A DNA stretch of 64,000 nucleotides, from positions 29,556 to 93,555 of the forward strand of contig CAYRQJ010000002.1 of the NCBI GenBank assembly GCA_964426555.1. The letters run 5' to 3'. Each line of letters opens with the position of its first letter. Position 1 is the first letter of the stretch. Shown in pieces: positions 18,916-61,438 of the stretch. Origin of the DNA: an uncultured Candidatus Saccharibacteria bacterium (lineage in GTDB: Bacteria; Patescibacteriota; Minisyncoccia; Phycocordibacterales; UBA9973). The translations under genes and the position numbers were made by a program. Below the pieces are notes generated by a model. The model saw only the letters and a program-made list of their open reading frames with translations, made no database searches and was not told the DNA's origin.

Positions 18916-19998
18916 ATGTTTTTTAAAAGAAATAAAAATCCTGATGAGCAAAATAACTTATACATCTCTATAGATGGACGCAGTATTGGTATTTCTTTTT
19001 ATACAGGTTTTATTTGTGATTATTCAGATAGAAGAATTCATATCGCAGGGGAATCAGTTAGACCAATCGAAGCTTTGTTTACTGATATTTTATATGGATT
19101 TAAACATGAAAATAAAAAACCAATAGATAATATTTATGTCATTTTAGAAAATCCTTGGGTAAAAGAAGTTTATACTACAATTAAAGATAAACGACTAAAA
19201 CCATTCGTAGTTACAGAGTCAACAATTAGTGATTTAATAAACAAAGATATAAAAAATAACCAGAATGACAATAAAAATGTCGGTCTTTCTTATGCAGTTG
19301 AACATATTAAGCTTAATGGTTATTCTTACGATGAACCTGTTGGAAAAATATCAGAAGAAATTGAAATCTCTTTAACTAAATTTTATGGGGATAAAGAGAT
19401 TATAGATACTACACAAAAAATTGTTAATGATTTTTGGAATAAAACAAAGATTAGTTATGTAACTGGTCCAGAGTATTTATTTAAGATTGGAAAAAATCTT
19501 TGTGCATTAAACGATATGTTTATAATGCTTGGTTCAACTGACACAACTATTCGGCTATATTCACAATGTATTGTTACTGAAAAAATTATAATCCCATATG
19601 GATACCAAAATTTACTACAAAAATTAAATCAAAAATGGAGTACAGCTTCAACTGATACTGCAAATTGGTTAAATTTATTTTTAAAAAATTCTTTAGATGA
19701 AAAAGAGAAAAATAGAATAGAGTCTGATTTAAAAGAAGCAATTCTTGATTATATTGATTTATTTAACAAAGCTAACTATCAAAAAACATCGTTTATTCTA
19801 GAAAGACCAATTACTGTTTTTGGGGCAGATGATAATTGGAATAAGCTTTTAATTTATATGTTAAAAAATAAATATTTTGGTGAAATTTTCCCACATATTG
19901 AAAATTCAAATATAGTCAATATAACTGATAAAATTAGAGATTTAAAAGGCGATCTTTTAATTGGTGTTTATTTTAGAATGAATACTTTACTTAAATAA
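18916..19998 (+). CDS. Hypothetical protein
   Basis: Intact 360-aa ORF, no recognised motif. Confidence 0.35.
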   Translation: MFFKRNKNPDEQNNLYISIDGRSIGISFYTGFICDYSDRRIHIAGESVRPIEALFTDILYGFKHENKKPIDNIYVILENPWVKEVYTTIKDKRLKPFVVTESTISDLINKDIKNNQNDNKNVGLSYAVEHIKLNGYSYDEPVGKISEEIEISLTKFYGDKEIIDTTQKIVNDFWNKTKISYVTGPEYLFKIGKNLCALNDMFIMLGSTDTTIRLYSQCIVTEKIIIPYGYQNLLQKLNQKWSTASTDTANWLNLFLKNSLDEKEKNRIESDLKEAILDYIDLFNKANYQKTSFILERPITVFGADDNWNKLLIYMLKNKYFGEIFPHIENSNIVNITDKIRDLKGDLLIGVYFRMNTLLK

Positions 19999-19999
19999 T

Positions 20000-20980
20000 A
20001 TGGCCAAAATTACAATAAAAGATATAAAAGTAAAACCTAAGAATGGTATAAATAAACAGGTAGTAATTAGAACATCGCAAACAGAGCCTCAAACTAATAA
20101 AGTTCAAAAATCTATAGAAAAAGAAAAACCCGTAAATGATTTAATAAAAAGCAGTTTTTCTAATAATGACGATACAGAATTTGAAAATTATAAAAAAATA
20201 CAAAAAACTTTAAATAAAACAAATAGAAAGCTGACTAAGTTTTTGGTTATTTTGTTTATCAGCATTTTATTTGTTGTGTTTGGTTTGTATTTTTTTACAA
20301 ATACGTATTTGACTATATCTCCTAAAAAAACAAAGATAAATGTCATATATACCATAAATCACTCGAACTGGAATTATCCAATAAAAGCACAAGTAATGGT
20401 TGTTAGCGATACAGTGTCGAATATAAATGAGTCAATACTTGAACAAGAAAAGGAAAAAATTACTACAAATTTAAATTCTCAAAAAGTATTTAATGCACCC
20501 AAAGGTTATTTAAATTATTCTGGGTGTTCCAGTGGTATTACTTTTTCAACTGAAATATTAGACGAGAAAACAAAAACATTAAATCTAACAGGTACTGAGT
20601 CTTTAATAATTATCGAGAAGCAAAGCCTATTTAATTATATATATAAACAAGGGAACTACGCTGATTCAAATATTAAAGATATCTCTGGATTAAAATGTTC
20701 ATTAAATTCAAACATAACATCTTACAAACAAGGAGTAGCCGCTAATGGGTTATCTTACAACATTACAGGGGAAATAATTTTTGAAAAAAAGATAGAAGAA
20801 GATAAATTTAAAAATTTAATTTCAGGAAATAAAAGAACTAGAATTTTAAATGAATTAAAACTAAATCAAAATATTCAAGAGTATAATTTTGTTTCAAAAC
20901 CTTTAAATTTTATGATGATTTTCCCTAAAAAGGTAAACCAAATTCATATTATTTATAGAGAATCCACAATAATTAATTAA
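20000..20980 (+). CDS. Hypothetical membrane-anchored protein
   Basis: Single TM helix (LVILFISILFVVFGLYFF), then an N/S/T-rich ectodomain. Confidence 0.35.
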   Translation: MAKITIKDIKVKPKNGINKQVVIRTSQTEPQTNKVQKSIEKEKPVNDLIKSSFSNNDDTEFENYKKIQKTLNKTNRKLTKFLVILFISILFVVFGLYFFTNTYLTISPKKTKINVIYTINHSNWNYPIKAQVMVVSDTVSNINESILEQEKEKITTNLNSQKVFNAPKGYLNYSGCSSGITFSTEILDEKTKTLNLTGTESLIIIEKQSLFNYIYKQGNYADSNIKDISGLKCSLNSNITSYKQGVAANGLSYNITGEIIFEKKIEEDKFKNLISGNKRTRILNELKLNQNIQEYNFVSKPLNFMMIFPKKVNQIHIIYRESTIIN

Positions 20981-20984
20981 TTAA

Positions 20985-21518
20985 TTAATTTTGGTTTTTT
21001 ACAAACTCAGCTTCAGTTTCTGGGTCAATATTTTCACTTACTATTATCATTAGTTCTGTTGTTAAACCAAGATCTCTTTTGATGTTGTAAAACATATGTT
21101 CAAAAGGGTAGGGTGATACCCAAACAGAATTTTTAATACAAATAAAACCAGCTTTTTTTAATAAATAACGTAATGATTCTCTTTCGTTTTTACGATTTTC
21201 AGGTAAATCAAGTAATATTATTCGCCATTTACCATCCCAAGTTGTGCTAATTGTCTCTCCACTATCCAGTTTAATACTCATAGCCTTTTTCTTACCTTGC
21301 TTTGTAAGCCTTGTGTATTCATTTTGACCAGAATGTATGCGTTCTATTAAACCAGCCTCTTCCAGGCCCTTTATAGAGCGAATAATTGCATATTTAGACT
21401 TACCTGAACCGTCTCTTGTTAGCTCATTTAAAGAAACTACTGGCTTTTCCGTTAGTATTTTTATGATTTTATTTGAATTATTTGGACTTTTGGCCATATA
21501 GTGCAAGATACTACACAA
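20985..21518 (-). CDS. PaaX-family transcriptional regulator
   Basis: Winged-helix N-terminus. C-terminal WDGKWRIILLDLPENRKNERESLRYLLKKAGF..NSVWVSP matches the PaaX C-terminal domain pattern. Confidence 0.5.
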   Translation of the reverse strand: MCSILHYMAKSPNNSNKIIKILTEKPVVSLNELTRDGSGKSKYAIIRSIKGLEEAGLIERIHSGQNEYTRLTKQGKKKAMSIKLDSGETISTTWDGKWRIILLDLPENRKNERESLRYLLKKAGFICIKNSVWVSPYPFEHMFYNIKRDLGLTTELMIIVSENIDPETEAEFVKNQN

Positions 21519-21555
21519 TTGTATTTTTTACAAGTATTTCGTGACCGCTAAATAC

Positions 21556-21583
21556 TTGCATAAATTCATAATTTGTATATAAT
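21556..21583 (+). promoter_or_regulatory. Putative sigma70 promoter of dnaK (TTGCAT-N16-TATAAT)
   Basis: Hexamers at 21556-21561 and 21578-21583. A direct repeat of TTGCATA flanks it. No CIRCE or HAIR element found. Confidence 0.45.
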
Positions 21584-21617
21584 ACATTGCATACAAGTAG
21601 TAAATTTATAAAATATT

Positions 21618-23510
21618 ATGTCAAAAATCATTGGTATCGATCTTGGTACAACAAATAGCGCAGTTTCTATAATTGAAGCTGGTCAGCCTAAGATAATCGA
21701 AAATATCGAAGGTAACAGAACTACACCTTCTATTGTTGCTCAAAACAAAACTGGAGAAAGACTGGTTGGTCTTTTAGCTAAAAGACAAGCAGTAACAAAC
21801 CCTGAAAATACTATTTTCGGAATCAAAAGATTCATGGGGCACAATTTTAGTGACCCAGAAATAATGAAATCTGTTGGAAATCTTCCTTATAAAATTAGTG
21901 AAGGTAAGGATGGTGGAGTAGAAGTTGCTCTTAATGGAGTAGCTACTAGACCTGAAGAAATTTCAGCAATGATATTGTCAAAAATCAAAGCAGATGTTGA
22001 AGCTAAATTAGGCGAAAAAGTTACAGAAGCGGTTATTACTGTTCCTGCATATTTTAATGATGCTCAAAGAAAAGCTACAGTTGATGCTGGTAAAATTGCA
22101 GGGCTTGATGTAAAGCGAATAATTAATGAACCAACAGCAGCAGCGTTAGCTTATGGTTTTAATAAAAAAACAAATGAAAAAATTGCAGTCTATGACTTTG
22201 GAGGTGGAACATTTGATGTATCAATTCTTGAAATTGGAGATGATGTTATTGAAGTAAAATCTACCGATGGTGATTCACATATGGGCGGTGAAGATATCGA
22301 CCATAAAATAATTTCATTCATTGCAGACGAATATAAAAAAGAAAGTGGTATTGATGTAACAAAAGATACACTAGCTCTACAAAGACTTAAAGAAGCAGCG
22401 GAAAAAGCAAAGCATGAATTATCTACTACTAACGAAACTGAAATAAATATTCCATTTATTACATCTGATGCAAATGGCCCTAAACATTTATTACTTAAAA
22501 TTACCCGTGCTAAATTAGAAGAACTAGCTGCTGAATATATAAACCGCTCAATTGAAATTACAAAAAGAGCAATAGAAGCTAGTGGTATTAAAGCTAGTGA
22601 AATTGATGAAATTATTCTTGTAGGAGGACAAACCAGAATGCCTAGAATAATTGAAGCAGTTAAAGATTTGTTTGGTAAAGAACCAAATAGATCTATTAAC
22701 CCAGATGAAGTTGTGGCTTTGGGGGCTGCTGTTCAAGGTGGGGTTTTGCAAGGTGAAGTTAGAGATGTATTACTTTTAGATGTTATTCCACTATCACTGG
22801 GTATTGAAACACTAGGAGGTGTTGCAACAAAATTAATCGAAAGAAACACAACAATTCCTGCAACAAAATCTCAAATATTCTCTACTGCTGGTGATAACCA
22901 AACATCGGTTGAAATTCATATTGTTCAAGGAGAAAGACAAATGGCACAAGACAATAAACCACTGGGAAGATTTATTCTAGATGGAATTCCACCAGCTCCA
23001 CGTGGAATGCCACAAATTGAAGTTAGCTTTGATGTTGATGCAAATGGAATACTTAGTGTAAAAGCTAAAGATAAAGCTTCTGGAAAAGAACAAAGTATTC
23101 GTATTGAAGCTAGTTCTGGATTAACTGATTCTGAAATTGAAAAAATGAGAAAAGACGCAGAATTATATGCTGAAGAAGATGCAAAGTTAAAAGAGCTTGT
23201 TGATGTAAAAAATACTGCAGAAATGCTTGTTTATACTGCAGAAAAATCTTTAAAAGATGCTGAAGGCAAGATAAGTGAAGAAATAAAAAAATCAGTTGAA
23301 GATGCTATCGGTGAATTAAAAACAGTAAAAGACAATGGATCTATCGAAGAAATTAAATCTAAAACTGAAGCATTAAGCAGTGTTTTGTCTAAAATTGGAG
23401 AAGAAATGAATAAAGCAAATCCTGAAAATAATAATTCTACAGAAAACCAAGAGAATGTAAAAGAAGCAGATTTTGAAGAAAAAAATACAAACAATGAAAA
23501 ATCTGAATAA
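21618..23510 (+). CDS. dnaK: Chaperone DnaK (Hsp70)
   Basis: [34 protein letters not shown]. 630 aa. Confidence 0.95.
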
Positions 23511-24069
23511 GAAAAGTACCAGACATGTTTCTGTTAAATATAAAAAAGATATAATTAAATCTGATAAAAAAGACCAGTCTCTTCGTGGTGTCTTAAATAA
23601 AATAAAAGACAAACAAAATGCCTGTGTAATTATACTGGACGAATTAACCGATGTTCATAATGTCGGAGCGATAATTCGTTCAGCTGTAGCTACTGATGCT
23701 GATGCTATTGTTGTTAGTAAGCACAACCAAGCTCCAATTAACGATACTGTAATTAAAACTTCGGCTAATACTGCCCATATGATTACTGTCGTAGAGAGTA
23801 ATGTAAATGAAGCTATTAGAACACTAAAAGAAAATGGTTTTTGGGTACATGGTTTGTTTATGGATGGTGAAAGTAATCTTTGGCAAAGTGATTTAAAAGG
23901 CAAGGTTGCAATTGTTGTTGGGTCAGAAGGTGAAGGTATACATGTTTCAACTCGTAAATTATGTGATTTTTCTTTAGCTATACCAATGAACAAAAGTGTA
24001 GAATCATTAAATGCATCCGTTAGTGCTGCTGTTGCAATGTATGAAAGACTAAGACAAATAAATAATTAA
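23494..24069 (+). CDS. SpoU/TrmH-family RNA 2'-O-methyltransferase
   Basis: [30 protein letters not shown] are the SPOUT motifs. Start uncertain (23473 or 23494); it overlaps the dnaK 3' end. Confidence 0.7.
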
Positions 24070-24070
24070 T

Positions 24071-24940
24071 ATGGCCTCAAAAGATTATTATGAAATATTG
24101 GGGGTAAATAAAGGTGCAAGTAAAGATGAAATCAAAAAAGCTTTTCATAAGCTTGCACACAAATACCATCCTGATAAAAACAAAGGTGATGATACTAAAT
24201 TCAAAGAAGTAAACGAAGCTTATCAAATCCTATCAGACGATAATAAGCGTTCAAGTTATGACCAGTTTGGCAGTGCTGATGGCGCACAAGGCTTTGGTGG
24301 ATTTGGCGGTGGGCAATCTGGAGGCTTTGGAGGTTTTGATTTTTCTGGGTTTGGTGGTAACCAAGCTGGATTTGATATGGGAGATTTGGGTGATATTTTT
24401 GGTGACTTTTTTGGATCAGGTAGACAATCTAATGCTCAAAGACAAAAAAAGGGGCGCGATATTGTAACTGAATTAAACATTCAATTAAGCGAATTAATCT
24501 TGGGTTCTAAAAAAGAAATTCGTATTAAAAAACTTTCAAAATGTGATACATGTAGTGGTAATGGTGGAGCAAAAGGTGAAAAAGAAATTACATGCGACAA
24601 ATGTTCTGGTAAAGGTAGACTTGTTCGCATTAGAAAAACGATACTTGGAGCAATACAAGAAGCTTACGAATGTGATAAATGTGATGGCGAAGGTAGTATT
24701 GTTAAACATAAATGTAATACTTGTCATGGTTCTGGAAGTATCCAAAAAGAAGCAGAATTTAGTGTAAACATTCCAGCTGGAAGTAATAACGGCGATACAC
24801 TGAGACTGTCTGACGCTGGTGAATATATCAAACGCGGAATAAATGGAGATTTGTACATTAAACTTAGACTTGATTTCCCTCGTAAATTAAACGAAAAACA
24901 AAAGAAAGCACTAGAAGAATTACAGCGAGAAGGTCTGTAA
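24071..24940 (+). CDS. dnaJ: DnaJ-like co-chaperone (J domain, G/F region, four CxxCxGxG repeats), C-terminally short
   Basis: [33 protein letters not shown] (HPD). Four zinc-finger repeats [32 protein letters not shown]. Only about 70 aa follow, versus two full CTDs in canonical DnaJ. Confidence 0.8.
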
Positions 24941-24970: not shown

Positions 24971-25972
24971 ATGAAAAGTTTTTTATTAAAAATAATTATA
25001 CTAAGTTTGATCTTTGTAGGTTTTTTTAAATACAAAACTGAAATATTAAACCGCGCAAAGCCAGTCATAGATCATTATCGAAATATAATTTCTTCTGTAT
25101 TGCCAAATTCTAATAATTCTATTACTGGTCCGTGTGATGAACCAATTTATTATAATTTGGGTATTATTGATGCTAAATTTAATTTAGAAGATAAATATGT
25201 ATTGGCTGCATTAATTGAAGCTGAGTCTGTATGGGAAAAGGCAATAAATAAAAATTTATTTGAATACAATCAAAACCAAGAAAACCCAATGAAAATTAAT
25301 TTTCTTTATGATTATAGGCAAGAAGCCAGTAATACTATGGCTAAAATTGGCATCAAGGTGGAACAAACCCAAGATTCTTATAATGAAGTTAAAGCCAAGT
25401 ATTTTTCTTTAAAACAAGAATACTATTCTCTAAAAATAACATACGACAAAAAATTAAGTTCTTTTAATAAAAAAAATAAAGACTTGCAGGCGCAAATTAA
25501 TATATGGAATAGCAAAGGTGGTGCTCCAAAAGAAGAATATGATAAATTAATAAAAATTCAACAAGAACTAACTAAAGAATTCAATGAAATTAGTTTACTT
25601 GGTCAAAAAATTAATACACTAGTAATTAATGTTAACTCACTAGCAACAACTCTTAACTCTTTAGCCAATGTATTAAATATTAATGTTGGTGAATACAATA
25701 AAATCGGTCAAAGTTTAGGAACATCTTACGAAGAAGGTCTATACAAAAGCAATGGGCTAACTTCGTCTATTGATATTTATGAATTTAAAAATCATGATCA
25801 ATTAGTTAAAATTTTAACTCACGAACTGGGCCACGCATTAGGTTTTGAGCATGTAGAAGACACAAAAGCTGTGATGTATAAAATAAACAATAGTAATAGT
25901 TTAGTTTTAAGCCAATCTGATATATCACTTTTAAATACAAAATGTAGCTTGGGTATTAACATTGCTAAATAA
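24971..25972 (+). CDS. Membrane-anchored metzincin-type zinc metalloprotease with coiled-coil region
   Basis: HELGHALGFEHVEDTKAVMY (HExxHxxGxxH plus Met-turn). N-terminal hydrophobic anchor. Confidence 0.55.
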   Translation: MKSFLLKIIILSLIFVGFFKYKTEILNRAKPVIDHYRNIISSVLPNSNNSITGPCDEPIYYNLGIIDAKFNLEDKYVLAALIEAESVWEKAINKNLFEYNQNQENPMKINFLYDYRQEASNTMAKIGIKVEQTQDSYNEVKAKYFSLKQEYYSLKITYDKKLSSFNKKNKDLQAQINIWNSKGGAPKEEYDKLIKIQQELTKEFNEISLLGQKINTLVINVNSLATTLNSLANVLNINVGEYNKIGQSLGTSYEEGLYKSNGLTSSIDIYEFKNHDQLVKILTHELGHALGFEHVEDTKAVMYKINNSNSLVLSQSDISLLNTKCSLGINIAK

Positions 25973-30908: not shown

Positions 30909-31385
30909 ATGAAAAACACAGAAAAAGCATTTATTTGGATAACTGATATTCTTGAGAAAAAGAGAATCAAATACAAAATATCTGGTGGTTTTGCTGTAAG
31001 AATTTATGGATCAAATCGAGAACTGGCAGATATCGATATCGAGGTTGCAGATGAAGATATTCTATTAGTTAAAAAAGAGGTAGAAGAATATATTATATAT
31101 GGCCCAAAAAGGTATTTAGATGAGGACTGGAACCTTAATCTTATGACACTAAATTATGCAGATCAGGAAATTGACATAGCCGGAATAGATGCAAAGATTT
31201 TTAATAAAAAAACAAAACAATGGGAAAATTTATCAAGTAACTTAGACACAATTGAAATCAAGGAAATTTTTGGTAAAATGGTGCCTATAGAATCACTAAA
31301 GTCTCTAATTAATTATAAAACAAGGCTTGGTAGGGAAGTTGACGTAGATGACATAAAACAACTAAGCTTGCATAAAAAGCCTTAA
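30909..31385 (+). CDS. Nucleotidyltransferase of the Lnu(A)/ANT(2'')-like family (lincosamide/aminoglycoside nucleotidyltransferase-like)
   Basis: YKISGGFAVRIYGSNRELADIDIEVADED aligns with Lnu(A) Y-W-L-D-G-G-W-G-V-D...RE.RDIDIDFDA. Similar size (158 aa). Confidence 0.5.
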   Translation: MKNTEKAFIWITDILEKKRIKYKISGGFAVRIYGSNRELADIDIEVADEDILLVKKEVEEYIIYGPKRYLDEDWNLNLMTLNYADQEIDIAGIDAKIFNKKTKQWENLSSNLDTIEIKEIFGKMVPIESLKSLINYKTRLGREVDVDDIKQLSLHKKP

Positions 31386-31781: not shown

Positions 31782-34088
31782 ATGCAAAATCCACACATGC
31801 CCGACATACCAATGAACCGTGATGTTACGTATTTTGCTCGTACTAATTTTCGTGGCGGAAATCAAATTTTTGGTATCAAAAGAAAAGACCGTCGTCAGCA
31901 TATGTATGTGTTGGGTAAATCTGGTACAGGTAAATCAGCTCTACTTTCAAATTTGATTATTCAAAATGTTTGGAATGGTGAAGGTGTATGTGTGGTAGAT
32001 CCACACGGAGAGCTTGTTGAGACTGTATTAAAAATGATTCCTGAACATCGACTAAATGATGTTGTATATTTTAACCCAGCAGATACAGAATACTGTATAG
32101 GATTTAACCCACTTGAACTACCTGATCCAAAATATAAACATTTAGTGGCATCTGGGCTAATGGGAATATTTACAAAAATTTGGGCAAATGTATGGTCGTC
32201 TCGTATGGAATACATTATGAACAATACTATCTTAGCATTGCTTGATACTCCAAATTCAACACTACTGGGAATCCCTAGAATGTTAGTGGACAAAGACTAC
32301 CGTCAAGTGATAATTGAGAACCTGAAAGACCCAATTGTTAAAGCTTTTTGGGTACACGAATACGAACAATGGAAAGAACAATTTCGTAACGAAGCTATTG
32401 CTCCTATTCAAAATAAAGTTGGACAATTTCTTTCGTCTTCCATAATTCGTAATATAGTTGGCCAACAAGAAAGTACAATCGACATCTTCAAAATGATGAA
32501 CGAAGGTAAAATTTTCTTAGTCAATGTATCCAAAGGTAGAATAGGTGAAGATAATTCCGCACTACTTGGTGCAATGATTATTACAAAACTTCAGCTTGCT
32601 GCGATGGAACGTGTTCGTATTCCAGAAGACGAAAGAAGAGATTTTTATTTATACGTAGATGAATTCCAAAACTTTGTTACTGATTCTTTTGCTAGTATTT
32701 TATCTGAAGCTAGAAAATACCGTTTGTGTCTTATACTAGCTCACCAATATACTGCCCAAATCGAAGGTGGTGATAATGATTTAAAAGATGCTGTTTTTGG
32801 GAACGTAGGATCAATGGTTATTTTTCGAATTGGATCAGAAGATGCAAAATTATTTGAAAAAGAATTTGCCCCAGAATTTATTCCAGAAGATTTTGTTGGG
32901 CTACCTAACTACCAAGTATTTTTAAAATTAATGATAGACGGGGTAACTAGTAGACCTTTTTCTGCAAATACTCTTCCACCAATTAGAACAAACATTAGTT
33001 TTGATAGTAGCGCCCGAGCAATAGCAGAGTCAAGAAATACTTATTGCCGACCACAAATCCAAGTTGAAAACAATATTAATGCATGGAGCTCGACTTCTGG
33101 TGGAACCACGGTAGAAGCTAAATCAAACCCAGTTACTGGCGGTAAAATGTACCCAGCTGTATGTGTAAATTGTAATAAAGACATAATGGTTCCTTTTGAA
33201 CCTAAAGACGGAAAACCAATTTATTGTAAAGAATGTTTAAATAAAATCAAAGTTGGCGAATTAAAGCCGAATAAAGGTTATTACGATAAAAATTCAAATT
33301 CTGGCCCTAAACCAGCAGAATCATTAGCTATGCTTGGTATTGAATATGATGATTCTATAATAAATTCCAACAATCGAAATAACAAATCAACAAATTTTGT
33401 CAGAACTGGGAATAGTAGTAGCATGGCAAACAACACAGAACCAACTAAGAAATCTTTTGCTCCTAAAAAAGAACCAGAAGATAGTTATAAAGAAAAATTA
33501 TTAAAAGAAGACCCCGTAAAAAAACAAGATGGCTTTGGGTCTTTGAAAGATTTATTAAATAAAGTAGCTCCAACAAATAAAATCCCTCAAGAAAAACCAG
33601 TTTCAAATAATACTCCTATACAAAATGACCCCAAAAAAATAACCCTGCATTCACATACTATTAAAAAAGAAAACAATTTTCCTGAAACTAACACAATACT
33701 AAAAACAAAAGCTGCTAGCTACGAATCTCAACAAATGTTAAAAAATTTAATTGAAACAACAAAACAAACAGTAAATAATTCACCAGTAGTTAGTACTCCA
33801 ATTCAAAAAACCGAGGAGAAAGAAATTGTGGCAACAAAAGAACCTGAAGCAAAAATTGAAAACAAAAAAATAGTAGAACCTGTAGTTGAAGTTACTGAAA
33901 GAAAAATTGAACATATTGTGGAAGATAAGCCAGAGAATGCTGCTGTACCTAAACCACCAGAATCATACAGTAAAAGAACACCAGCAAAAGAAGTTCCTGA
34001 AGATATTTTAAAGCAGGTTTTAAATGATGAAGAAAAACCAGCCAGTACAAATACTAATGTTAATAGTAACCCAAATATAGACCAATAG
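31782..34088 (+). CDS. Soluble VirD4/TraG (T4CP)-type P-loop ATPase paralog 1, with C-terminal zinc ribbon and long low-complexity tail
   Basis: FGIKRKDRRQHMYVLGKSGTGKS (Walker A), DPHGE, FYLYVDEFQNF (Walker B), EARKYRLCLILAHQY. No TM segments. CVNCNKDIMVPFEPKDGKPIYCKEC at nt 33163-33236, then a K/E/P/N-rich tail. Confidence 0.65.
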   Translation: MQNPHMPDIPMNRDVTYFARTNFRGGNQIFGIKRKDRRQHMYVLGKSGTGKSALLSNLIIQNVWNGEGVCVVDPHGELVETVLKMIPEHRLNDVVYFNPADTEYCIGFNPLELPDPKYKHLVASGLMGIFTKIWANVWSSRMEYIMNNTILALLDTPNSTLLGIPRMLVDKDYRQVIIENLKDPIVKAFWVHEYEQWKEQFRNEAIAPIQNKVGQFLSSSIIRNIVGQQESTIDIFKMMNEGKIFLVNVSKGRIGEDNSALLGAMIITKLQLAAMERVRIPEDERRDFYLYVDEFQNFVTDSFASILSEARKYRLCLILAHQYTAQIEGGDNDLKDAVFGNVGSMVIFRIGSEDAKLFEKEFAPEFIPEDFVGLPNYQVFLKLMIDGVTSRPFSANTLPPIRTNISFDSSARAIAESRNTYCRPQIQVENNINAWSSTSGGTTVEAKSNPVTGGKMYPAVCVNCNKDIMVPFEPKDGKPIYCKECLNKIKVGELKPNKGYYDKNSNSGPKPAESLAMLGIEYDDSIINSNNRNNKSTNFVRTGNSSSMANNTEPTKKSFAPKKEPEDSYKEKLLKEDPVKKQDGFGSLKDLLNKVAPTNKIPQEKPVSNNTPIQNDPKKITLHSHTIKKENNFPETNTILKTKAASYESQQMLKNLIETTKQTVNNSPVVSTPIQKTEEKEIVATKEPEAKIENKKIVEPVVEVTERKIEHIVEDKPENAAVPKPPESYSKRTPAKEVPEDILKQVLNDEEKPASTNTNVNSNPNIDQ

Positions 34089-34089
34089 T

Positions 34090-35226
34090 ATGAAAATTTT
34101 ATTAACCGGAGGCGGAACAGGTGGTCATTTTTATCCGCTTATTGCAATAGCAGAAAGAATAAATACTCTTTCAAGAGAAAAGAAGATTCTTGAAGTTGAT
34201 TTGTATTACATGAGTAATGGAAAATATGACGAAAAATCTTTGACTCAAAATAATATTAGTTTTGTATATGTACCTACAGGTAAATTGCGTTTGTATCCAT
34301 CTATAAAAAATGTTACTGATTCATTTAAAATAGTAACCGGTATTATAACTGCATGTTTTAAAATGTTTTTTATTTACCCAGATGTAGTAATTTCCAAAGG
34401 TGGGCATGGTGCGGTACCAGCATTATTTGCAGCTAGATTACTAAAAATTCCAATTATTATTCATGAATCAGATACTTATCCAGGCCGTACAAATGTATGG
34501 TCAGGAAAATTTGCAAAACTAATTACCTTGGCATATAAAGACAGTAACGAAATTTTTGATAAAAATAAAACTGCAGTTATTGGACTACCTATTCGAAATG
34601 AATTATTACATGTGCCAGCTCCAAGCGATGGAGCAAAATATTACGGGCTGGATGAACATATTCCAACTATTTTTGTATACGCAGGGTCACTGGGAGCTGA
34701 AAAAATTAATAATCTAATCTTAGAATCATTACCCGAATTATTAAAAAGTTATCAAATTATTCATCAGTGTGGTATTAAAAATGAAACAGAAGTAAGAAGT
34801 CGGACAAGTATAATACTGGAAGATCATCCTTATAAAAATCGCTATATTATAAAACCGTTTCTGGATGTAATAGACACCAGGCACGCTGCTGCAATTGCAT
34901 CTCTTGTAATTGCCCGCGGTAATTCAACTTTGTTTGAAGTAGCTGCTTGGAAAATACCAGCAATAGTAATACCTATTACTAAAAGTAACGGCAACCACCA
35001 GCACACTAATGCCGTAGCATTTGTCTCTATGGGAGCAGGAGTACTACTGGAAGAACAAAATGCATTGTCGCATTTATTTATTTCAAAAATTAATGAAATA
35101 TTACTACACCCTGATGTATGGCAAAAAATGCATAACTCTATGAAAGATTTTGGAGATATTGACGCAGCTGTTGAAATAGCTCGTGAAGCCATATTAATAG
35201 GCGAATCTCACGAAATAGACGATTAA
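34090..35226 (+). CDS. murG: MurG-type glycosyltransferase (GT28), UDP-GlcNAc:lipid I transferase
   Basis: MKILLTGGGTGGHFYPLIAIAE, GGHGAVP, IIIHESD, AGSLGAEKIN. Collinear with the MurG motifs GGTGGH, HEQN, GGSQGA. Confidence 0.75.
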   Translation: MKILLTGGGTGGHFYPLIAIAERINTLSREKKILEVDLYYMSNGKYDEKSLTQNNISFVYVPTGKLRLYPSIKNVTDSFKIVTGIITACFKMFFIYPDVVISKGGHGAVPALFAARLLKIPIIIHESDTYPGRTNVWSGKFAKLITLAYKDSNEIFDKNKTAVIGLPIRNELLHVPAPSDGAKYYGLDEHIPTIFVYAGSLGAEKINNLILESLPELLKSYQIIHQCGIKNETEVRSRTSIILEDHPYKNRYIIKPFLDVIDTRHAAAIASLVIARGNSTLFEVAAWKIPAIVIPITKSNGNHQHTNAVAFVSMGAGVLLEEQNALSHLFISKINEILLHPDVWQKMHNSMKDFGDIDAAVEIAREAILIGESHEIDD

Positions 35227-35234
35227 AAAAGATT

Positions 35235-36704
35235 ATGTCTTCATTAAAACCCAATAAAATTCAAATCATCAAATATAGTCCGCCGCCATCAGAACTGCCG
35301 GTTCTTGGTGATATGAATCCATCTGAAGTTTCTTTTATTGGGCGAACAAATTATGCTGCAGCGTTGGAAGAAAAAAGATATGTTTTTGGAATTAAACGAA
35401 TAGACCGAAGACGCCATTTATATATTGTTGGAAAATCTGGGGTTGGAAAATCTAAACTTCAAGAATTAATGATTCGTCAAGATATAGCATATGGTTACGG
35501 TGTATGTGTTATAGACCCGCACGGCGAATTAATTGAAGATATTTTAGAATTTGTACCTGAAGACAGAATCGATGATGTTTGTATTATTGACCCGTCTGAC
35601 GATCAATACCCAGTATCTTTTAATCCACTGGCAAATATTGATAGCGGATTTAAACACCAACTTACTCAAGGTCTTATTGAAGTATTAAAAAAACAATTTG
35701 GATCAAACTGGACACCAAGATTGGAACACGTGTTTCGTTTTACCGTATTGGCGCTACTAGACTACCCATACGCTACAATGCGTGGAATGATTAGTATGCT
35801 GACCGACCGTAACTACCGTCAAAAAGTGGTGGAATACATTGAAGACGACATGGTAAAACGTTTTTGGGCAATTGAATTTGCGGACTGGAGTGAAAAATTT
35901 GATACCGATGCGATTATTCCATTGGTTAATAAGCTGGGACAATTTTTGTCTGACCCAATGTTACGAAACATTTTTGGGCAAATTGAGAACAAAGTTGATT
36001 TAGAAAAATTAATGAATGACAAAAAAATTGTTTTTATTAATTTATCCAAAGGTAAAATTGGGGAAGAAAATTCGTCTTTCTTTGGAGCTATGTTTATTAC
36101 AAAAATTAAACAAGCTGGTATGAGCCGTGCAAAATTAGATAAAGCTGATAGACACGACTTTTATTTATATGTAGACGAGTTTCAAAACCTTGTGACTGAT
36201 ACTTTTGAAAACATTTTATCTGAAGCTCGTAAATATGGACTAAATCTTACTGTTGCTCACCAGTATGTAAACCAACTTTTACCTAAAGTTCAGCAAGCCG
36301 TAATGGGAAATGTTGGGTCAATGATTACGTTTCGTGTTGGTGGAGAAGACGCTGTAAAACTAAAGCCCGAATATGCTCCAATATTTGATGTAAAAGACAT
36401 GATTAATCTTGGGGTAGGGGAATTTTATATTAAAATGACAATAGACGGCGAAAGTTACGACCCATTCTCTGCAGAAACATTAAAAGTTTTACCTCCAACA
36501 CATCCGTCTTATAGAGACAGAATTGTACAAGCATCTCGCGAAAAATATTCTATGCCAGTAGACGAAGTTAAGAAGATTTACGAACAAGAAGAATCTATGA
36601 TTGTTCGTAGTGCGTCTGAAAAAGCCGCAGTTACTCGTAGTAATACTGGTGGTGAATCAAACGATGCTCCCGCAAAGATAGTTGAAAGCGAACCATTAAT
36701 TTAG
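35235..36704 (+). CDS. Soluble VirD4/TraG (T4CP)-type P-loop ATPase paralog 2
   Basis: FGIKRIDRRRHLYIVGKSGVGKS, DPHGE, FYLYVDEFQNL, EARKYGLNLTVAHQY. Paralog of 31782..34088 without the tail. Confidence 0.65.
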   Translation: MSSLKPNKIQIIKYSPPPSELPVLGDMNPSEVSFIGRTNYAAALEEKRYVFGIKRIDRRRHLYIVGKSGVGKSKLQELMIRQDIAYGYGVCVIDPHGELIEDILEFVPEDRIDDVCIIDPSDDQYPVSFNPLANIDSGFKHQLTQGLIEVLKKQFGSNWTPRLEHVFRFTVLALLDYPYATMRGMISMLTDRNYRQKVVEYIEDDMVKRFWAIEFADWSEKFDTDAIIPLVNKLGQFLSDPMLRNIFGQIENKVDLEKLMNDKKIVFINLSKGKIGEENSSFFGAMFITKIKQAGMSRAKLDKADRHDFYLYVDEFQNLVTDTFENILSEARKYGLNLTVAHQYVNQLLPKVQQAVMGNVGSMITFRVGGEDAVKLKPEYAPIFDVKDMINLGVGEFYIKMTIDGESYDPFSAETLKVLPPTHPSYRDRIVQASREKYSMPVDEVKKIYEQEESMIVRSASEKAAVTRSNTGGESNDAPAKIVESEPLI

Positions 36705-36743
36705 CTATTAAAATTTAGTTTATAAAAATACAGAATATACTTT

Positions 36744-38441
36744 ATGAATTCCGAAACCCGAAACTGCCAAAATTGTAAATCTGACTTTGTAATAGAGCCA
36801 GATGATTTTGATTTTTATAGCAAAATTGGCGTACCAGCACCAACATGGTGCCCGGAATGCAGAATGATCCGAAGATTTAATTTTCGTAATGAAAAAATGC
36901 TATTTCGTAGACCAGACGGTTTAACCGGTCAAGACATATTTTCTACGTTTTCTCCTGAATCAGAAGTAACTACTTATGAAAACAACTACTGGTTTGGATC
37001 AGAATGGGATCCAAATATTACAGGAAAAGATTACGATTTTAATAAAACTTTCTTTACACAATTTAAAGATCTTTTAAAAGTTGCTCCAATTCCAGCAAGA
37101 TCTGTATTTAAAATGGTAAATTCTGATTATTGTAATGAGGCTAGTGAATCAAAAAATTGTTATTTATGTTTTAATACAGACTTTATAGAAGATTCTGCTT
37201 ATTTAAGGAAAATTAGACAAGTAAAGAATTCATTTGATTTATATGAATGCGAGAACTGTGAACTTAGCTATGAAGGATTAGTTTTAGATAAATGCTATAG
37301 GACATTTTATTCTTTTGGTTTAGAAAATTGTGTAGATGTATGGTTTTCAAAAAATTTACGAGGATGTACTAATTGTTTTGGTTGCGTAAATTTAGTAAAT
37401 AAATCAAATTGTTATTTTAATGAGCAATTAACCAAGGAAGAATATAATAAAAAAATTAGTGAATTTAATTCTGGGTCATATTTTGAAATTGAACAAATAT
37501 TAAAAAAATCTAAGGAATTTTGGATGAAATTCCCAGTTAAATATAACTACAGTTTAAAGAACATAAATGCAACAGGGGATAGGATATTTAATTCTAAAGA
37601 TATCAAGGATTCATACTATATAAAGAATTCTCAAAATTTAACTTACTGCCAAGATGTTTGGAATAAAAGTTCAGACTGTTACGACTATTCAGTATGGGGG
37701 GACGGAGCACAAAATGTATATGAATCAATGACATGTGGGTTAGGAATTTCAAATATAAAATTTTGTTTTAATTGTTGGGAGAATGAACAAAATTTAGAAT
37801 ATTGTGGATACTGTATTGGTTCAAACGATTGTTTTGGATGTATTGGTTTATACAAAAAACAATATTGCATATTAAATAAACAATATACAAAAGAAGAATA
37901 CTTTGAATTACTTCCCAAAATAAAACAGCATATGATGAATATGCCGTATGTTGATTCAAGTAATAGAGTTTTTAAATATGGTGAATTTTTTCCTTATGAC
38001 ATATCACCTGTAGCTTATAACGAAAGCTTAGCTCAAGATTTTTTTCCACTTAATCCTAATAAAATAATAGAAAACGGTTATCAATATAGAGAGATAAAAA
38101 ATAGAGAATTTGAAAAAACTATTTTAGCTAAAGACATACCAGACAATATAAAGGATTTAAATGAAGATTTTATTAAAGAAATTATTGAATGCGAAAACTG
38201 TACAAAAGCATTTAGAATCATACCAATTGAATTTCAATTCTACAAAAATATAAATATCCCTATTCCTAGAAAATGTCAAGATTGCAGATTTACGGAAAGA
38301 TTTAAATTTGTTACAGTTCCAAAATTTTATAATAGAAATTGTATGAATAACGATTGTAATAATACTTTTATTACGCCATACGCTCCAGATAGGCCAGAAA
38401 TAGTGTACTGTGAAAAGTGTTACCAGCAAGAAATGATTTAA
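36744..38441 (+). CDS. Cysteine-rich protein, paralog 1, with N- and C-terminal zinc-ribbon motifs and internally duplicated Cys modules
   Basis: CQNCKSDFVIEPDDFDFYSKIGVPAPTWCPEC at the N-terminus and CENCTKAFRIIPIEFQFYKNINIPIPRKCQDC near the C-terminus. Many CxxC pairs. No signal peptide. Confidence 0.6.
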   Translation: MNSETRNCQNCKSDFVIEPDDFDFYSKIGVPAPTWCPECRMIRRFNFRNEKMLFRRPDGLTGQDIFSTFSPESEVTTYENNYWFGSEWDPNITGKDYDFNKTFFTQFKDLLKVAPIPARSVFKMVNSDYCNEASESKNCYLCFNTDFIEDSAYLRKIRQVKNSFDLYECENCELSYEGLVLDKCYRTFYSFGLENCVDVWFSKNLRGCTNCFGCVNLVNKSNCYFNEQLTKEEYNKKISEFNSGSYFEIEQILKKSKEFWMKFPVKYNYSLKNINATGDRIFNSKDIKDSYYIKNSQNLTYCQDVWNKSSDCYDYSVWGDGAQNVYESMTCGLGISNIKFCFNCWENEQNLEYCGYCIGSNDCFGCIGLYKKQYCILNKQYTKEEYFELLPKIKQHMMNMPYVDSSNRVFKYGEFFPYDISPVAYNESLAQDFFPLNPNKIIENGYQYREIKNREFEKTILAKDIPDNIKDLNEDFIKEIIECENCTKAFRIIPIEFQFYKNINIPIPRKCQDCRFTERFKFVTVPKFYNRNCMNNDCNNTFITPYAPDRPEIVYCEKCYQQEMI

Positions 38442-38447
38442 TTACTT

Positions 38448-38525
38448 TATGAATTCCGAAACCCGAAACTGCCAAAACCCCAAAGAAAATCATATTTCAT
38501 TGCTTTCTACGGGGCAAACTGTAAA
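38448..38525 (+). pseudogene. Duplicated 5' fragment of the Cys-rich gene (MNSETRNCQ...) ending in an early stop
   Basis: 33 nt at 38445-38477 are identical to 36741-36773, which holds the start of paralog 1. Reading frame decays after 9 codons. Confidence 0.5.
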
Positions 38526-38533
38526 ATAAATAT

Positions 38534-40270
38534 ATGGAGAATAGAGAATGTCAGAATTGTCATAATAATTTCACGATTGAGCCGGATGATTTTGGCTTTT
38601 ACGAAAAAATTGGTGTACCAGTACCAACCTTTTGCCGAATTTGCATGAATCAAAGAAGGCTTTCTTTTCGTAATACTCATTCGTTATACAAAAGAAAAGA
38701 TTCATTTACTGGTAAAGATATAATTACAATATATTCTCCAGACAAAGATTTAACTGTAATGGCACAAAAAGATTGGTGGGGTGACAGTTGGAACGCAATG
38801 GATTATGCACAAGATTATGATTTTTCAAAACCATTTTTTACACAGTGGGATAATTTGCGTAACAATGTTCCTATGCAAAGTTTGTCTAATTCCAAAGCAG
38901 TAAATAGTGACTACTGTAATGTTGCCGAAGAAAGCTACGACTGTTATCTTGTTTCTGCATCATGGCGATGTGAAAGATCAATGTATTGTGATGCAGTAAG
39001 CCAAATTAAAGATACTATGGACTGTCATGTAGTAAACAAGTCTGACTTTTGTTATGACGATGTATTATGCCAATCATCTTACAAGCTTTTCTACAGTCAG
39101 GACTGTCATGCTTGTACAGATTCATATTTCCTATACGACTGCAGTGGTTGTACTGATTGTTTTATGTCTTCAAACTTACGTAACAAAAGTTATTGTTTTA
39201 ATAACGTTCAATTAACTAAAGAAGCTTACAAAGAAAAAATGAGTCAAATAAATTTAGGAAGTTTTGAGACTGTGCAATACTTAAAATCCGAATTTGAAAA
39301 AATGCGTTTAAATTCGTTTCATCGATTTAGTAATACATTAAATTCTGTAAATGTTACAGGTAATAACATTGAGAACGCAAAAAATTGTTATTATGCTTTT
39401 GATGCTTTTGAAGGATTAGAAGATTCTAAATATGTATTTTGGGCTGGGTACAAAGGTAAGGAATTTTTCCATTCTGGTCCAGGAGTAGGGGAAGGTGAAT
39501 TAATGTATGAATGTACTGATTGTGGTATAGGTGGTAACCGTAATTTATTTGCTAACGTAACTTATGGTTGCCAAAATATTGAATACTGTATCAACTGTCA
39601 TAATTCTTCAAATTTGTTTGGTTGTATTGGTTTGCGCAGTAAACAATATTGTATTTTCAACAAACAATATACAAAAGAAGAATGGCTGGAATTAATTCCA
39701 AAAATAAAACAACATATGAATGATATGCCATATATAGACAAAGCTGGTGTTGTTTATAAATACGGGGAATTTTTTCCAATTGAATTATCACATTTTTGTT
39801 ATAACGAAACGGTGGCTATGGACTATTATCCACTTACAAAAGAAGAATGTTTAGCCCGGGGTTATAAATGGAAAGACCCTGAAATAAAAAACTACGTGCC
39901 AACAGTTAAATCTACTGATCTACCTGACGATATTGCAATGGTAGGAGACAACATACTAGGAGATATTATTGAATGTGCTCATAAAGGTGAATGTAGCGAT
40001 AGATGTTCCACTGCATTTAAAATTACTGAAAATGAATTAAATTTTTATAAAAGATTCAACATTCCATTACCAAGACTATGTAACGGTTGCAGACATTATG
40101 AAAGATTACATAAAAGAACTCCTATGGATTTATGGCACAGACAATGTATGTGTAATAAATCAAACCATAATCACAGTAGTCAATGTCCCGTAGAATTTGA
40201 AACCGCATACGCCCCAGACAGACCAGAAATAGTGTACTGTGAAAAATGCTATCAACAAGAAGTAATATAA
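38534..40270 (+). CDS. Cysteine-rich protein, paralog 2
   Basis: CQNCHNNFTIEPDDFGFYEKIGVPVPTFCRIC N-terminus; CSTAFKITENELNFYKRFNIPLPRLCNGC C-terminus. Same C-terminal YAPDRPEIVYCEKCYQQE as paralog 1. Confidence 0.6.
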   Translation: MENRECQNCHNNFTIEPDDFGFYEKIGVPVPTFCRICMNQRRLSFRNTHSLYKRKDSFTGKDIITIYSPDKDLTVMAQKDWWGDSWNAMDYAQDYDFSKPFFTQWDNLRNNVPMQSLSNSKAVNSDYCNVAEESYDCYLVSASWRCERSMYCDAVSQIKDTMDCHVVNKSDFCYDDVLCQSSYKLFYSQDCHACTDSYFLYDCSGCTDCFMSSNLRNKSYCFNNVQLTKEAYKEKMSQINLGSFETVQYLKSEFEKMRLNSFHRFSNTLNSVNVTGNNIENAKNCYYAFDAFEGLEDSKYVFWAGYKGKEFFHSGPGVGEGELMYECTDCGIGGNRNLFANVTYGCQNIEYCINCHNSSNLFGCIGLRSKQYCIFNKQYTKEEWLELIPKIKQHMNDMPYIDKAGVVYKYGEFFPIELSHFCYNETVAMDYYPLTKEECLARGYKWKDPEIKNYVPTVKSTDLPDDIAMVGDNILGDIIECAHKGECSDRCSTAFKITENELNFYKRFNIPLPRLCNGCRHYERLHKRTPMDLWHRQCMCNKSNHNHSSQCPVEFETAYAPDRPEIVYCEKCYQQEVI

Positions 40271-40279
40271 ATCAAAAGA

Positions 40280-40310
40280 AAAAAGCTACAAATACATGTA
40301 GCTTTTAAAA
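40280..40310. terminator. Intrinsic terminator (bidirectional)
   Basis: aaaagctacaaatacatgtagctttt. Confidence 0.6.
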
Positions 40311-40329
40311 AATAAGATTTAGAAATGTT

Positions 40330-40461
40330 TTAAAAAACATCTGTCATAATGCCTTTATCGGCATCATCAAGAGCTTTTTGTCCACCAGGAGTTTGAAAGT
40401 ACAGGATTGCTACTGCTATTACAAGCAGTGCGATTGCGATTTTTTTAAGTAAATTTTTCAT
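40330..40461 (-). CDS. Possible small membrane protein (43 aa) MKNLLKKIAIALLVIAVAILYFQTPGGQKALDDADKGIMTDVF
   Basis: Short ORF with one TM helix, below the track threshold. Lies between two terminators. Confidence 0.25.
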   Translation of the reverse strand: MKNLLKKIAIALLVIAVAILYFQTPGGQKALDDADKGIMTDVF

Positions 40462-40532
40462 ATTGTTATATTGAAAATATTATAACACAATATAATTTAT
40501 TAGCAAACATAGTAGGGTAGTGGTGCAATATA

Positions 40533-40560
40533 AAAACCCTTCAGTAAAATGAAGGGTTTT
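40533..40560. terminator. Intrinsic terminator downstream of rpmA
   Basis: aaaacccttcagtaaaatgaagggtttt. Confidence 0.6.
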
Positions 40561-61416: not shown

Positions 61417-61438
61417 GTTGATTTTTTTATCATCCATG

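Follow-up and report, generated by a model that had tools for sequence, protein, structure and literature searches.

What do two ATPases of the coupling-protein type do when their genes stand beside tandem genes for cysteine-rich, zinc-ribbon proteins? This question is raised by a locus in a 64-kb stretch of contig CAYRQJ010000002.1 (GC content ~31%; hereafter the window), whose closest relatives are Patescibacteria of the Nomurabacteria/Paceibacteria type. The Patescibacteria, or candidate phyla radiation (CPR), account for much of the diversity of bacteria, and they live on the surface of other microbes, to which they are attached. An initial annotation had described five consecutive plus-strand genes at 31782-40270, namely an ATPase (ATP1), a MurG-type glycosyltransferase, a second ATPase (ATP2) and two cysteine-rich proteins (Cys1 and Cys2), and all five open reading frames (ORFs) are present (Table 1). 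Orphan homologues of type IV coupling proteins (T4CPs) have already been published for Patescibacteria. A census of 2,918 Patescibacteria genomes counted 5,713 VirD4-like genes, of which no more than 148 lie near virB4, and its authors raised exaptation of the orphan homologues as a possibility (PMC12102498); about two such homologues are present per genome, without an assigned role (PMC12102498, PMC10633639). Herein, these orphan ATPases are tied to a specific membrane anchor, to a huge unannotated protein family, and to a history of fission and duplication from a conjugative coupling protein.

The assignment of both ATPases to the T4CP type was confirmed by their motifs and by Pfam models above cut-off. 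ATP1 matches PF10412 (TrwB_AAD_bind; 49.6 bits, cut-off 20.5), PF12696 (TraG-D_C; 24.4 bits, cut-off 22) and PF01935 (DUF87), and ATP2 matches PF02534 (T4SS-DNA_transf; 34.5 bits, cut-off 20.1), PF10412 (30.0 bits), PF12696 (23.1 bits) and PF01935. The TrwB_AAD_bind match covers profile positions 11-311 of 387, the all-alpha insertion included, and TrwB was the best PDB sequence match of ATP2 (E 0.0027). The nucleotide-binding motifs are intact, with the Walker A sequences GKSGTGKS (ATP1) and GKSGVGKS (ATP2) and the Walker B sequence YLYVDEF in both proteins. The NCBIfam T4CP models remained far under cut-off (the subfamily model SXT_TraD, 55.9 against 366 bits; the equivalog conju_CD1115, 53.9 against 250 bits). 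ATP1 and ATP2 share 46% identity, in line with the paralogy proposed for them. Downstream of its ATPase core, ATP1 carries a treble-clef ribbon that scores 47.3 bits against zf_Tbcl_2 (PF23477; cut-off 27) and 50.1 bits against TIGR04272 (cut-off 36), reaching a zf_Tbcl_2 E-value of 5.3e-15 when scanned as an isolated segment. The ribbon is kept by 24 of 29 ATP1 orthologues, which are 63-77% identical, and is followed by a disordered K/E/P-rich tail of ~280 amino acids (aa) containing KEVPEDILKQVL; the tails of the orthologues often end in KEVPEDVLRKILE. ATP2 is marked by a conserved N-terminal junction peptide and by an acidic tail ending E-P-L-I. All 28 ATP2 orthologues end in EP[LMI][IV], with EP[LM]I in 26 and EPIV and EPLV in the remaining two. 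The acidic tail of TraD binds TraM, and the ATP2 tail with its conserved end motif is comparable.

The degree of conservation of the pair is that of core cellular genes. More than 6,400 ATP2 homologues were found, ~80% identical across the Paceibacteria. When identity to the window proteins was measured within the same loci, ATP1 and ATP2 reached 72-77%, against 74-77% for DnaK, 58-68% for L21, 41-51% for DnaJ and 39-49% for CysRS. Such constraint is of housekeeping grade and unlike that of a mobile-element gene. The best plasmid match of ATP2, a Sulfitobacter protein with 35% identity, is an isolated gene among transposases and was set aside as uninformative.

The ATPases had been described as soluble. 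This holds for the polypeptides themselves, as neither contains a transmembrane segment (19-residue hydropathy maximum 1.21 in ATP1 and 1.01 in ATP2), but a split-off membrane-anchor subunit, TMN, is encoded in the same window. TMN has one N-terminal transmembrane helix and superposes structurally on a solved VirB4 N-domain at the level of a common fold, whereas its sequence similarity to solved VirB4 structures is undetectable. TMN itself had no match in the Pfam copy searched; its homologues carry PF26449 (DUF8128). Single-linkage clustering had suggested TMN as a third ATPase, a candidate that was discarded: direct comparison showed no ATPase homology, and the clustering link runs only through fused proteins. 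Homologues of TMN lie directly upstream of ATP2 in 23 loci and of ATP1 in 5, and DUF8128 and ATPase are fused into one protein in two relatives (L048, 790 aa; L172, 747 aa), in both cases beside a Cys array. When these fused proteins are aligned with the split ones, TPSLKRVETKTSKAPTDLP at the end of TMN and KPNKIQIIKYSPPPSELP in the N-terminal part of ATP2 fall on one and the same junction segment. The fission is thus a clean one, with the junction peptide retained on both halves. Furthermore, the fused L172 protein ends in EEPLI, as does ATP2.

The same fused architecture was found outside the Patescibacteria, in the phage family phrog_5156, in SPO1 gp27.4 and in phage G gp156. The N-terminal part of phrog_5156 is matched by TMN (E 2.3e-4), and its C-terminal half by ATP1 (E 2.9e-62) and ATP2 (E 1.7e-57). 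In addition, the 24.7-kb Bacillus subtilis plasmid NZ_CP032854 encodes an 886-aa fused homologue (WP_121549396.1) directly upstream of a replication-relaxation (relaxase-family) protein, a conjugal transfer protein, TcpE and an ATP-binding protein. The TMN profile aligned to the N-terminal part of this plasmid protein with an hhalign probability of 95.9%; against that of SPO1 gp27.4 it was not significant. The fusion forms, the junction peptide, and the plasmid and phage homologues show that the "soluble" ATPases are the split and duplicated part of a monoderm-type conjugative coupling protein, now chromosomal and vertically inherited. The fused protein, with a transmembrane helix, a DUF8128/VirB4-N-like domain and a VirD4/TrwB-type ATPase, is likely the ancestral form. 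The fused DUF8128-T4CP proteins of monoderm plasmids and phages are the nearest described form, with the same two modules in the same order. They differ from the window proteins in that the latter are split, with halves 18 kb apart and the junction peptide duplicated, and identity is just 23-28%; moreover, the plasmid fusion is neighboured by relaxase and Tcp conjugation genes, not by genes for Cys-rich proteins. Upstream of the anchor gene, the window encodes a 352-aa protein with Sigma70_r4 and HARE-HTH domains at 11306-12364 (+), followed by a 182-aa ORF with transmembrane and immunoglobulin-like features at 12414-12962, which lies between it and the anchor gene. Orthologues of the Sigma70_r4/HARE-HTH protein are encoded directly upstream of the DUF8128 gene in 26 of the 26 loci that have them, usually after secD-secF.

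The second component is the cysteine-rich (Cys) family. The two tandem genes encode paralogues of about 570 aa, as had been noted, with 41% identity; their cysteine content (33 residues or 5.8% in Cys1, 37 or 6.4% in Cys2) falls short of the roughly 10% first estimated. Neither protein contains a transmembrane segment (19-residue hydropathy at most 1.21) or a signal peptide. An AlphaFold2 (AF2) model of a Cys-rich protein (predicted local distance difference test, pLDDT, 86; predicted template-modelling score, pTM, 0.87) runs from an N-terminal treble-clef ribbon through a helical linker to a narrow two-lobed beta-solenoid, followed by a conserved block at residues 400-440 and two C-terminal ribbons. 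Each solenoid lobe in this model is closed by a conserved cap, CFGC..L..K..C..N.Q.TKEEY, plus a helix. In Cys1, a zf_Tbcl-like ribbon (C8, C11, C36, C39) is followed by helices, lobe 1 with its CFGC cap, a helical hairpin, lobe 2 with its CFGC cap, the conserved 400-440 block and two ribbons, of which the first, the second ribbon of the protein, uses C483, C486, C511 and C514, and the last, zf_Tbcl_2-like, uses C533, C538, C556 and C559.

The ribbons at both ends of the Cys proteins had been likened to that of ATP1, and this was found to apply, weakly, to the last one only. Against zf_Tbcl_2 (cut-off 27) the last ribbon scored 18.5 bits in Cys1 (E 0.0016) and 15.9 bits in Cys2 (E 0.011), and its first cysteine pair has the spacing C-x4-C in place of CxxC. 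The N-terminal ribbon is more probably of the zf_Tbcl type, a related family (PF13451; cut-off 24), with 25.0 bits for the isolated Cys1 segment and 18.5 bits for the whole protein, while the Cys2 N-terminus gave no match to this model; the second ribbon scored an E-value of 0.053 against it. By these profile scores, the last ribbon of Cys1 and Cys2 may, weakly, be assigned to the domain type of the ATP1 ribbon.

The family is large and strikingly uniform in length. A word-indexed search returned at least 7,391 matches, and an exhaustive search yielded 4,654 clusters at 50% identity (2,020 at E <=1e-30), with lengths tightly confined to 550-600 aa. Among 205 full-length members, the ribbons, the caps and the 400-440 block are conserved, and the solenoid bodies (141-200 and 241-360) vary, almost without insertions or deletions. 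The design of the family is thereby shown to be one of constant ends and caps with variable solenoid surfaces. For 94% of the members, the nearest relative lies in another genome (median identity 59%) rather than in the own locus (43%), which indicates that the paralogue subtypes are old. The median pI of 6.2 makes the proteins mildly acidic. The family body is not covered by any Pfam model, no PDB counterpart was found, and all named members are annotated as "hypothetical"; likewise, three terminal zinc ribbons together with two CFGC caps and the 400-440 block were found in no solved structure, and the family shows no detectable domain for RNA binding or for enzymatic activity.

A phage or plasmid origin of the Cys family was considered and rejected, the family being essentially absent from the corresponding collections. 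No tblastn match was obtained in 50,697 phage records, a single marginal fragment appeared among 2.9 million viral contigs, and in the plasmid search only the GNAT part of a GNAT-Cys fusion protein matched. As a separate observation, the solenoid region of Cys1 (aa 120-243; 37101-37472; E 1.2e-6) and that of Cys2 (E 5.3e-4) match the uncharacterised viral family phrog_15341 (276 positions). The GNAT-Cys fusion itself is instructive. At L165:10001-12196, a 731-aa protein joins a GNAT acetyltransferase to a full-length Cys-family protein whose three terminal ribbons lack the cysteines; its contig (53% GC; fliI/fliH, guaB/guaA and POR genes) is not from Patescibacteria. This homologue places the origin of the family before its Patescibacteria expansion: the family is older than that expansion and not strictly confined to Patescibacteria. 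The fusion gene directly follows iscS-like, mnmA, miaB-like, rnc and der genes, and other single-copy homologues lie near TrmD, GNAT and YchF genes, near MiaA, or beside amino-acid transporters.

Co-location of ATPases and Cys-rich proteins beyond the window, on which the initial annotation had staked its module, was established in both directions. Eighty Cys-seeded loci from GTDB species representatives and 80 ATP2-seeded metagenome loci were compared, and co-location was counted in loci of at least 18 kb. In the ATP2-seeded set, a Cys gene was present in 15 of 18 such loci and ATP1 in 15 of 18; in the Cys-seeded set, ATP1 was present in 18 of 32 and any ATPase in 19 of 32. Nearly all module genes (543 of 546) lie on one strand. 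It should be kept in mind that the organism labels of many metagenome-assembled genomes are coarse and that gene neighbourhood is weak functional evidence in genomes so dense in translation genes. The Cys genes form same-strand tandem arrays with a mean of 3.0 copies per locus and up to 11 in 20 kb, and several genomes hold at least 9-11 copies when separate loci of the same assembly are summed.

The order of the genes differs between lineages. One layout reads SecD-SecF-x8-TMN-ATP2-CutA1-Cys...ATP1, a second reads PaaX-like< DnaK-ATP1-Cys...ATP2-DnaJ-CysRS<-L21, and the window and its nearest relatives have L21-ATP1-MurG-ATP2-Cys-Cys; in a more distant lineage (L172), seven Cys genes are followed by one fused DUF8128::T4CP gene. 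The linkage of ATPase and Cys genes thus survives at least three different genomic contexts. The module appears to have moved as a unit, because the genes that flank it in the second layout are still present in the window: PaaX-like at 20985 (-), dnaK at 21618, dnaJ at 24071, cysS at 27229 and rplU at 31403. Within this segment, 20985-24940 holds the PaaX-like regulator (-) and then dnaK, a SpoU methylase gene and dnaJ. One large clade has the module within the grpE-dnaK-dnaJ cluster, between dnaK and dnaJ, and further Cys arrays between grpE and dnaK; DnaK precedes ATP1 in 12 loci, ATP2 precedes DnaJ in 19 and GrpE precedes Cys in 5. Two insertions into one chaperone cluster, at dnaK/dnaJ and at grpE/dnaK, may hint at a link to proteostasis.

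The content of the array beside ATP2 turns over among close relatives. When the window is compared with relatives whose ATP2 is 87-92% identical (L082-L086), the Cys genes that separate ATP2 from the convergent rpmA number 0, 1, 2, 2, 4 and at least 5. Few Cys pairs are orthologous among these arrays, and none of them offers a close match to the window's Cys2. Occurrence in paralogue pairs, which had been proposed for both families, was not supported for the Cys family, in which copy number ranges from none to at least five beside ATP2 among close relatives and to 11 in 20 kb elsewhere. The site between ATP2 and rpmA behaves like a cassette hot spot. Apart from CutA1, the genes that interrupt the Cys arrays are a mixed set with housekeeping functions. 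CutA1 (PF03091, E 2e-24) is found in 52 of the 160 loci, in 37 of them directly after ATP2, and is absent from the window; the position of CutA1, a small and supposedly metal-related trimer, beside multi-zinc proteins is suggestive. Examples are L008, L010 (L010:5250-5555), L012 and L014.

A canonical T4SS (type IV secretion system) or conjugative locus was rejected as an explanation of the region. The annotated parts of the window contain no virB4, relaxase or channel genes, and the large and recurrent neighbours in relatives are ValRS, SecA, UvrB, ribonucleotide reductase (RNR), P-type ATPase, DnaK/J, SecDF and ATP-binding cassette (ABC) transporter genes. The ATPases are thus T4CP-family proteins encoded outside a T4SS locus, as had been supposed. 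A T4SS is essential in the one genetically tractable Patescibacteria species (PMC12102498, PMC10633639). The T4SS cluster of S. epibionticum is without recognisable coupling or relaxase proteins, and its authors suggest possible protein export (PMC10633639).

Altogether, the ATPases, the DUF8128 subunit and the Cys array are likely to constitute one functional system. The relation between ATPases and Cys-rich proteins may be that of a coupling protein to an exported client, probably by way of a separately encoded T4SS, a tentative reading to which we give somewhat less than even weight. ATP1 and ATP2 would assemble into hexameric motors, tethered to the membrane by docking on the DUF8128 subunit. 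Their all-alpha domain and tail motifs would serve to recognise the Cys-rich proteins by the constant ribbon ends, and ATP would drive the hand-over of these clients to the envelope, most likely to a separately encoded monoderm-type T4SS. The Cys-rich proteins would then be cargo or cargo adaptors, and the ATPase pair their receptor. Hand-over to the envelope is favoured because the conserved membrane anchor and the VirB4-N-like docking domain suit a trans-envelope process, because coupling proteins exist for substrate recognition, because the neighbouring Cys proteins lack signal peptides and lie in variable, cassette-like arrays, and because no substrate has been assigned to the Patescibacteria T4SS (PMC10633639). 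The Cys-rich proteins have client-like features, since their ribbons and caps are constant and their solenoid surfaces variable, since array content turns over while the ATPases stay 87-92% identical and since the last ribbon is weakly of the same family as the ATP1 ribbon. More specifically, though this we rather doubt, the Cys arrays could be the missing cargo repertoire of the Patescibacteria T4SS, with the ATPase pair as dedicated receptor. If so, they would be the first candidates for what these ultra-small episymbionts pass to their hosts or present to them.

Several observations weigh against export of the Cys-rich proteins. No virB4, channel or relaxase gene was found within 10 kb in any inspected locus, nor among those neighbours that recur or are large in the first 80 loci of relatives, which makes the connection to a T4SS purely inferential. 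The t4cp homologue of S. epibionticum has been reported as non-essential (PMC12102498). No immunity-like genes were seen to accompany the Cys arrays. To judge from the predicted structure (pTM 0.87), the Cys-rich proteins would be compact, multi-zinc and awkward substrates for unfolding. Their ancient, conserved subtypes, closer to other genomes than to their own locus in 94% of cases, are unlike fast-evolving effectors, and conservation of the ATPases at the level of DnaK is more in keeping with a housekeeping hub than with secretion as an accessory function. Finally, single-copy Cys homologues without any T4CP, one of them GNAT-fused, occur on contigs that are not Patescibacteria-like.

A serious rival, on balance unlikely, is one in which nothing is exported. 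The Cys-rich proteins would act in the cytoplasm on RNA, ribosomes or proteins, each paralogue on its own target, and the conserved ATPase pair would load, remodel or recycle these zinc-ribbon factors. The DnaK-level conservation of ATP1 and ATP2, the ancient and conserved paralogue subtypes and the position of the module inside the grpE-dnaK-dnaJ cluster of one large clade all fit such a hub, as do the surroundings of the homologues elsewhere: the GNAT fusion outside Patescibacteria follows iscS-like, mnmA, miaB-like, rnc and der, and single-copy members lie near TrmD, GNAT and YchF or near MiaA. Treble-clef ribbons, moreover, commonly bind nucleic acid or protein. However, the transmembrane anchor, conserved on the DUF8128 subunit and in the fused forms, would be needless for a purely cytoplasmic machine, and the ancestry of the ATPases is that of a conjugative coupling protein. 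Given the density of translation genes in these genomes, chance alone is also expected to produce such neighbourhoods, and the Cys family offers no detectable RNA-binding or enzymatic domain. If the cytoplasmic explanation were true, the module would amount to a novel housekeeping machine, in which a T4CP-derived ATPase conserved like Hsp70 serves a family of beta-solenoid proteins with zinc. An improbable alternative retains the membrane and replaces the protein client by DNA. T4CPs are DNA-dependent ATPases of the FtsK/HerA superfamily, and a membrane-tethered T4CP/FtsK-like pair could move DNA in uptake, export or segregation, with the zinc-ribbon proteins as DNA-binding or DNA-mimicking accessories in place of relaxosome proteins. 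The relaxase-family gene adjoining the plasmid homologue points this way; high conservation would suit a cell-cycle role, and the Cys proteins are mildly acidic (median pI 6.2) and solenoid-built like some DNA mimics. Against this, the module holds no relaxase, nuclease or known DNA-binding domain, a role as DNA accessories hardly explains why a genome should have at least 10 diversified paralogues, and relaxases are rare in Patescibacteria (109 in 103 genomes; PMC12102498).

The remaining explanations dissolve the system or assign it another partner. Two vertically inherited, Patescibacteria-rich families could be neighbours through shared gene-order ancestry without any functional link. This would account for the 13 of 32 long Cys-seeded loci that have no ATPase within 10 kb, for the many housekeeping genes that interrupt the arrays, and for the single-copy homologues that occur without T4CPs; it is nonetheless given little probability, as the pair is kept through at least three independent flank rearrangements and in fused-ATPase lineages too, with near-perfect co-orientation and short intergenic gaps. 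Anti-phage defence, in which a HerA/DUF87-type ATPase would work with diversified sensor proteins, is suggested by matches of the ATPases to PADLOC mad8 (46-55 bits) and HerA models and by the variability of the paralogue arrays. Only the ATPase fold produces these matches, Cys1, Cys2 and TMN having no PADLOC match, the flanks inspected held no other defence genes, and DnaK-level conservation with broad spread across the Paceibacteria is unlike a defence island, so that a defence role is very improbable. The initial annotation, finally, had treated murG as a component and had envisaged the ATPase pair, MurG and the Cys proteins as coupling lipid II synthesis to ATP-driven assembly or translocation. 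The enzyme is of the MurG-type GT28 kind: both GT28 domains are present (PF03033, 92.4 bits; PF04101, 95.7 bits), and the MurG model TIGR01133 aligned over its full length with 198.9 bits against a cut-off of 250.25, a shortfall that probably reflects Patescibacteria divergence. In the window, murG lies 1 bp from ATP1 and 8 bp from ATP2, and the order is the same in the closest relatives (L084). Yet murG stands between the ATPases only where ATP2 is at least 87% identical (L082-L085) and is absent from the module in all relatives below that value; across the 160 loci it was found in 8, usually in a mur context of its own. Because its position is restricted to the closest relatives, murG is a lineage-specific passenger and no conserved module member, and a coupling to lipid II synthesis is hardly credible.

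The supposition that the module matches no described system was borne out. No paper was found on a split DUF8128 anchor combined with a duplicated T4CP pair and zinc-ribbon/beta-solenoid arrays (often with CutA1), searches of the literature on the Cys family, DUF8128, PF13451, PF23477 and TIGR04272 returned nothing, and no published description was thus found for the full combination or for the Cys family. With the T4CPs VirD4, TrwB of R388 and TraD, the window ATPases have in common the FtsK/HerA-type P-loop ATPase core, the Walker A and B motifs and the Pfam T4CP models. Unlike T4CPs, they lack a transmembrane domain in the same polypeptide (the anchor being supplied in trans), are duplicated, chromosomal and conserved at the level of DnaK, have no virB4, relaxase or channel gene nearby, and miss the NCBIfam cut-offs; ATP1 adds a zinc ribbon and a long disordered tail. 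In comparison with the VirB4 N-domain and TrsD, a free-standing VirB4-N-like protein of pGO1-type systems, TMN is paired with a VirD4-type ATPase and lies away from virB4. Type VII secretion, with EccC/EssC ATPases, EccE and variable substrate arrays nearby, involves a different ATPase lineage: the window ATPases have no FtsK_SpoIIIE match, no WXG100 or LXG domain is present, and neither EccB nor EccD was seen, although the fused L048 relative shows a weak, below-cut-off FtsK_SpoIIIE match at the P-loop. A T4CP working with dedicated soluble partners is exemplified by Legionella DotL with DotM, the zinc-binding DotN, IcmS/W and LvgA. In the Dot/Icm system the adaptors are small and single-copy, and we know of no sequence or fold relation between them and the Cys family. 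In comparison with beta-solenoid proteins (left-handed beta-helix acyltransferases, gamma-carbonic anhydrase, curli CsgA, and insect and plant antifreeze proteins), the Cys proteins have no hexapeptide-repeat Pfam match, and beta-solenoid structures gave TM-scores of at most 0.12 relative to the Cys-rich query.

Table 1. Positions of the module genes, the membrane anchor and associated sites in the window.
Feature	Position	Strand	Size or remark
ATP1	31782-34088	+	768 aa
CxxC-x17-CxxC treble-clef ribbon in ATP1, aa 455-489	33144-33248	+	PF23477, TIGR04272
MurG-type GT28 glycosyltransferase	34090-35226	+	378 aa
ATP2	35235-36704	+	489 aa
Cys1	36744-38441	+	565 aa
Cys2	38534-40270	+	578 aa; Cys1 paralogue
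TMN (DUF8128 membrane-anchor protein)	12964-14223	+	419 aa; 18 kb upstream of ATPases
Palindromic hairpin with A/T runs either side	40281-40306	unstranded	terminator-like site, consensus match only

Consecutive module genes are spaced by 1, 8, 39 and 92 bp. The hairpin 11 bp past the Cys2 stop codon, which also lies downstream of the convergent rpmA, is likely the end of the transcription unit, as judged by its sequence, and rplU is preceded by a promoter-like site (consensus match only). As had been reported, ftsA and ftsZ are located at the window start and the genes for L21 and L27 border the module. The accompanying argument that the module is wedged between the normally adjacent rplU and rpmA carries little weight here: the flanking is real, but L21 and L27 are non-adjacent in more distant relatives too. 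Within the 64 kb, there are no further copies of the ATPases or the Cys-rich proteins and no second murG.

Several other features of the window were recorded. Three ORFs had no Pfam match: the 554-aa ORF at 2951-4615 (-) adjoining ybeY (at E <=0.001) and the adjacent ORFs at 18916-19998 (+; 360 aa) and 20000-20980 (+; 326 aa) downstream of alaS. A 333-aa matrixin-like (Peptidase_M10) protein is encoded at 24971-25972 (+), and the 158-aa product of 30909-31385 (+), just upstream of rplU, gave a weak match to aminoglycoside 2''-adenylyltransferase (22 bits, cut-off 21). The sole tRNA, and the sole Rfam match in the 64 kb, is a tRNA-Ile (GAT) at 61438-61510 (-). Gene orientation switches at ~40300-40560, with mostly plus-strand genes from 4.8 to 40.3 kb and mostly minus-strand genes beyond, and the cumulative GC skew reaches its maximum at 38-42 kb.

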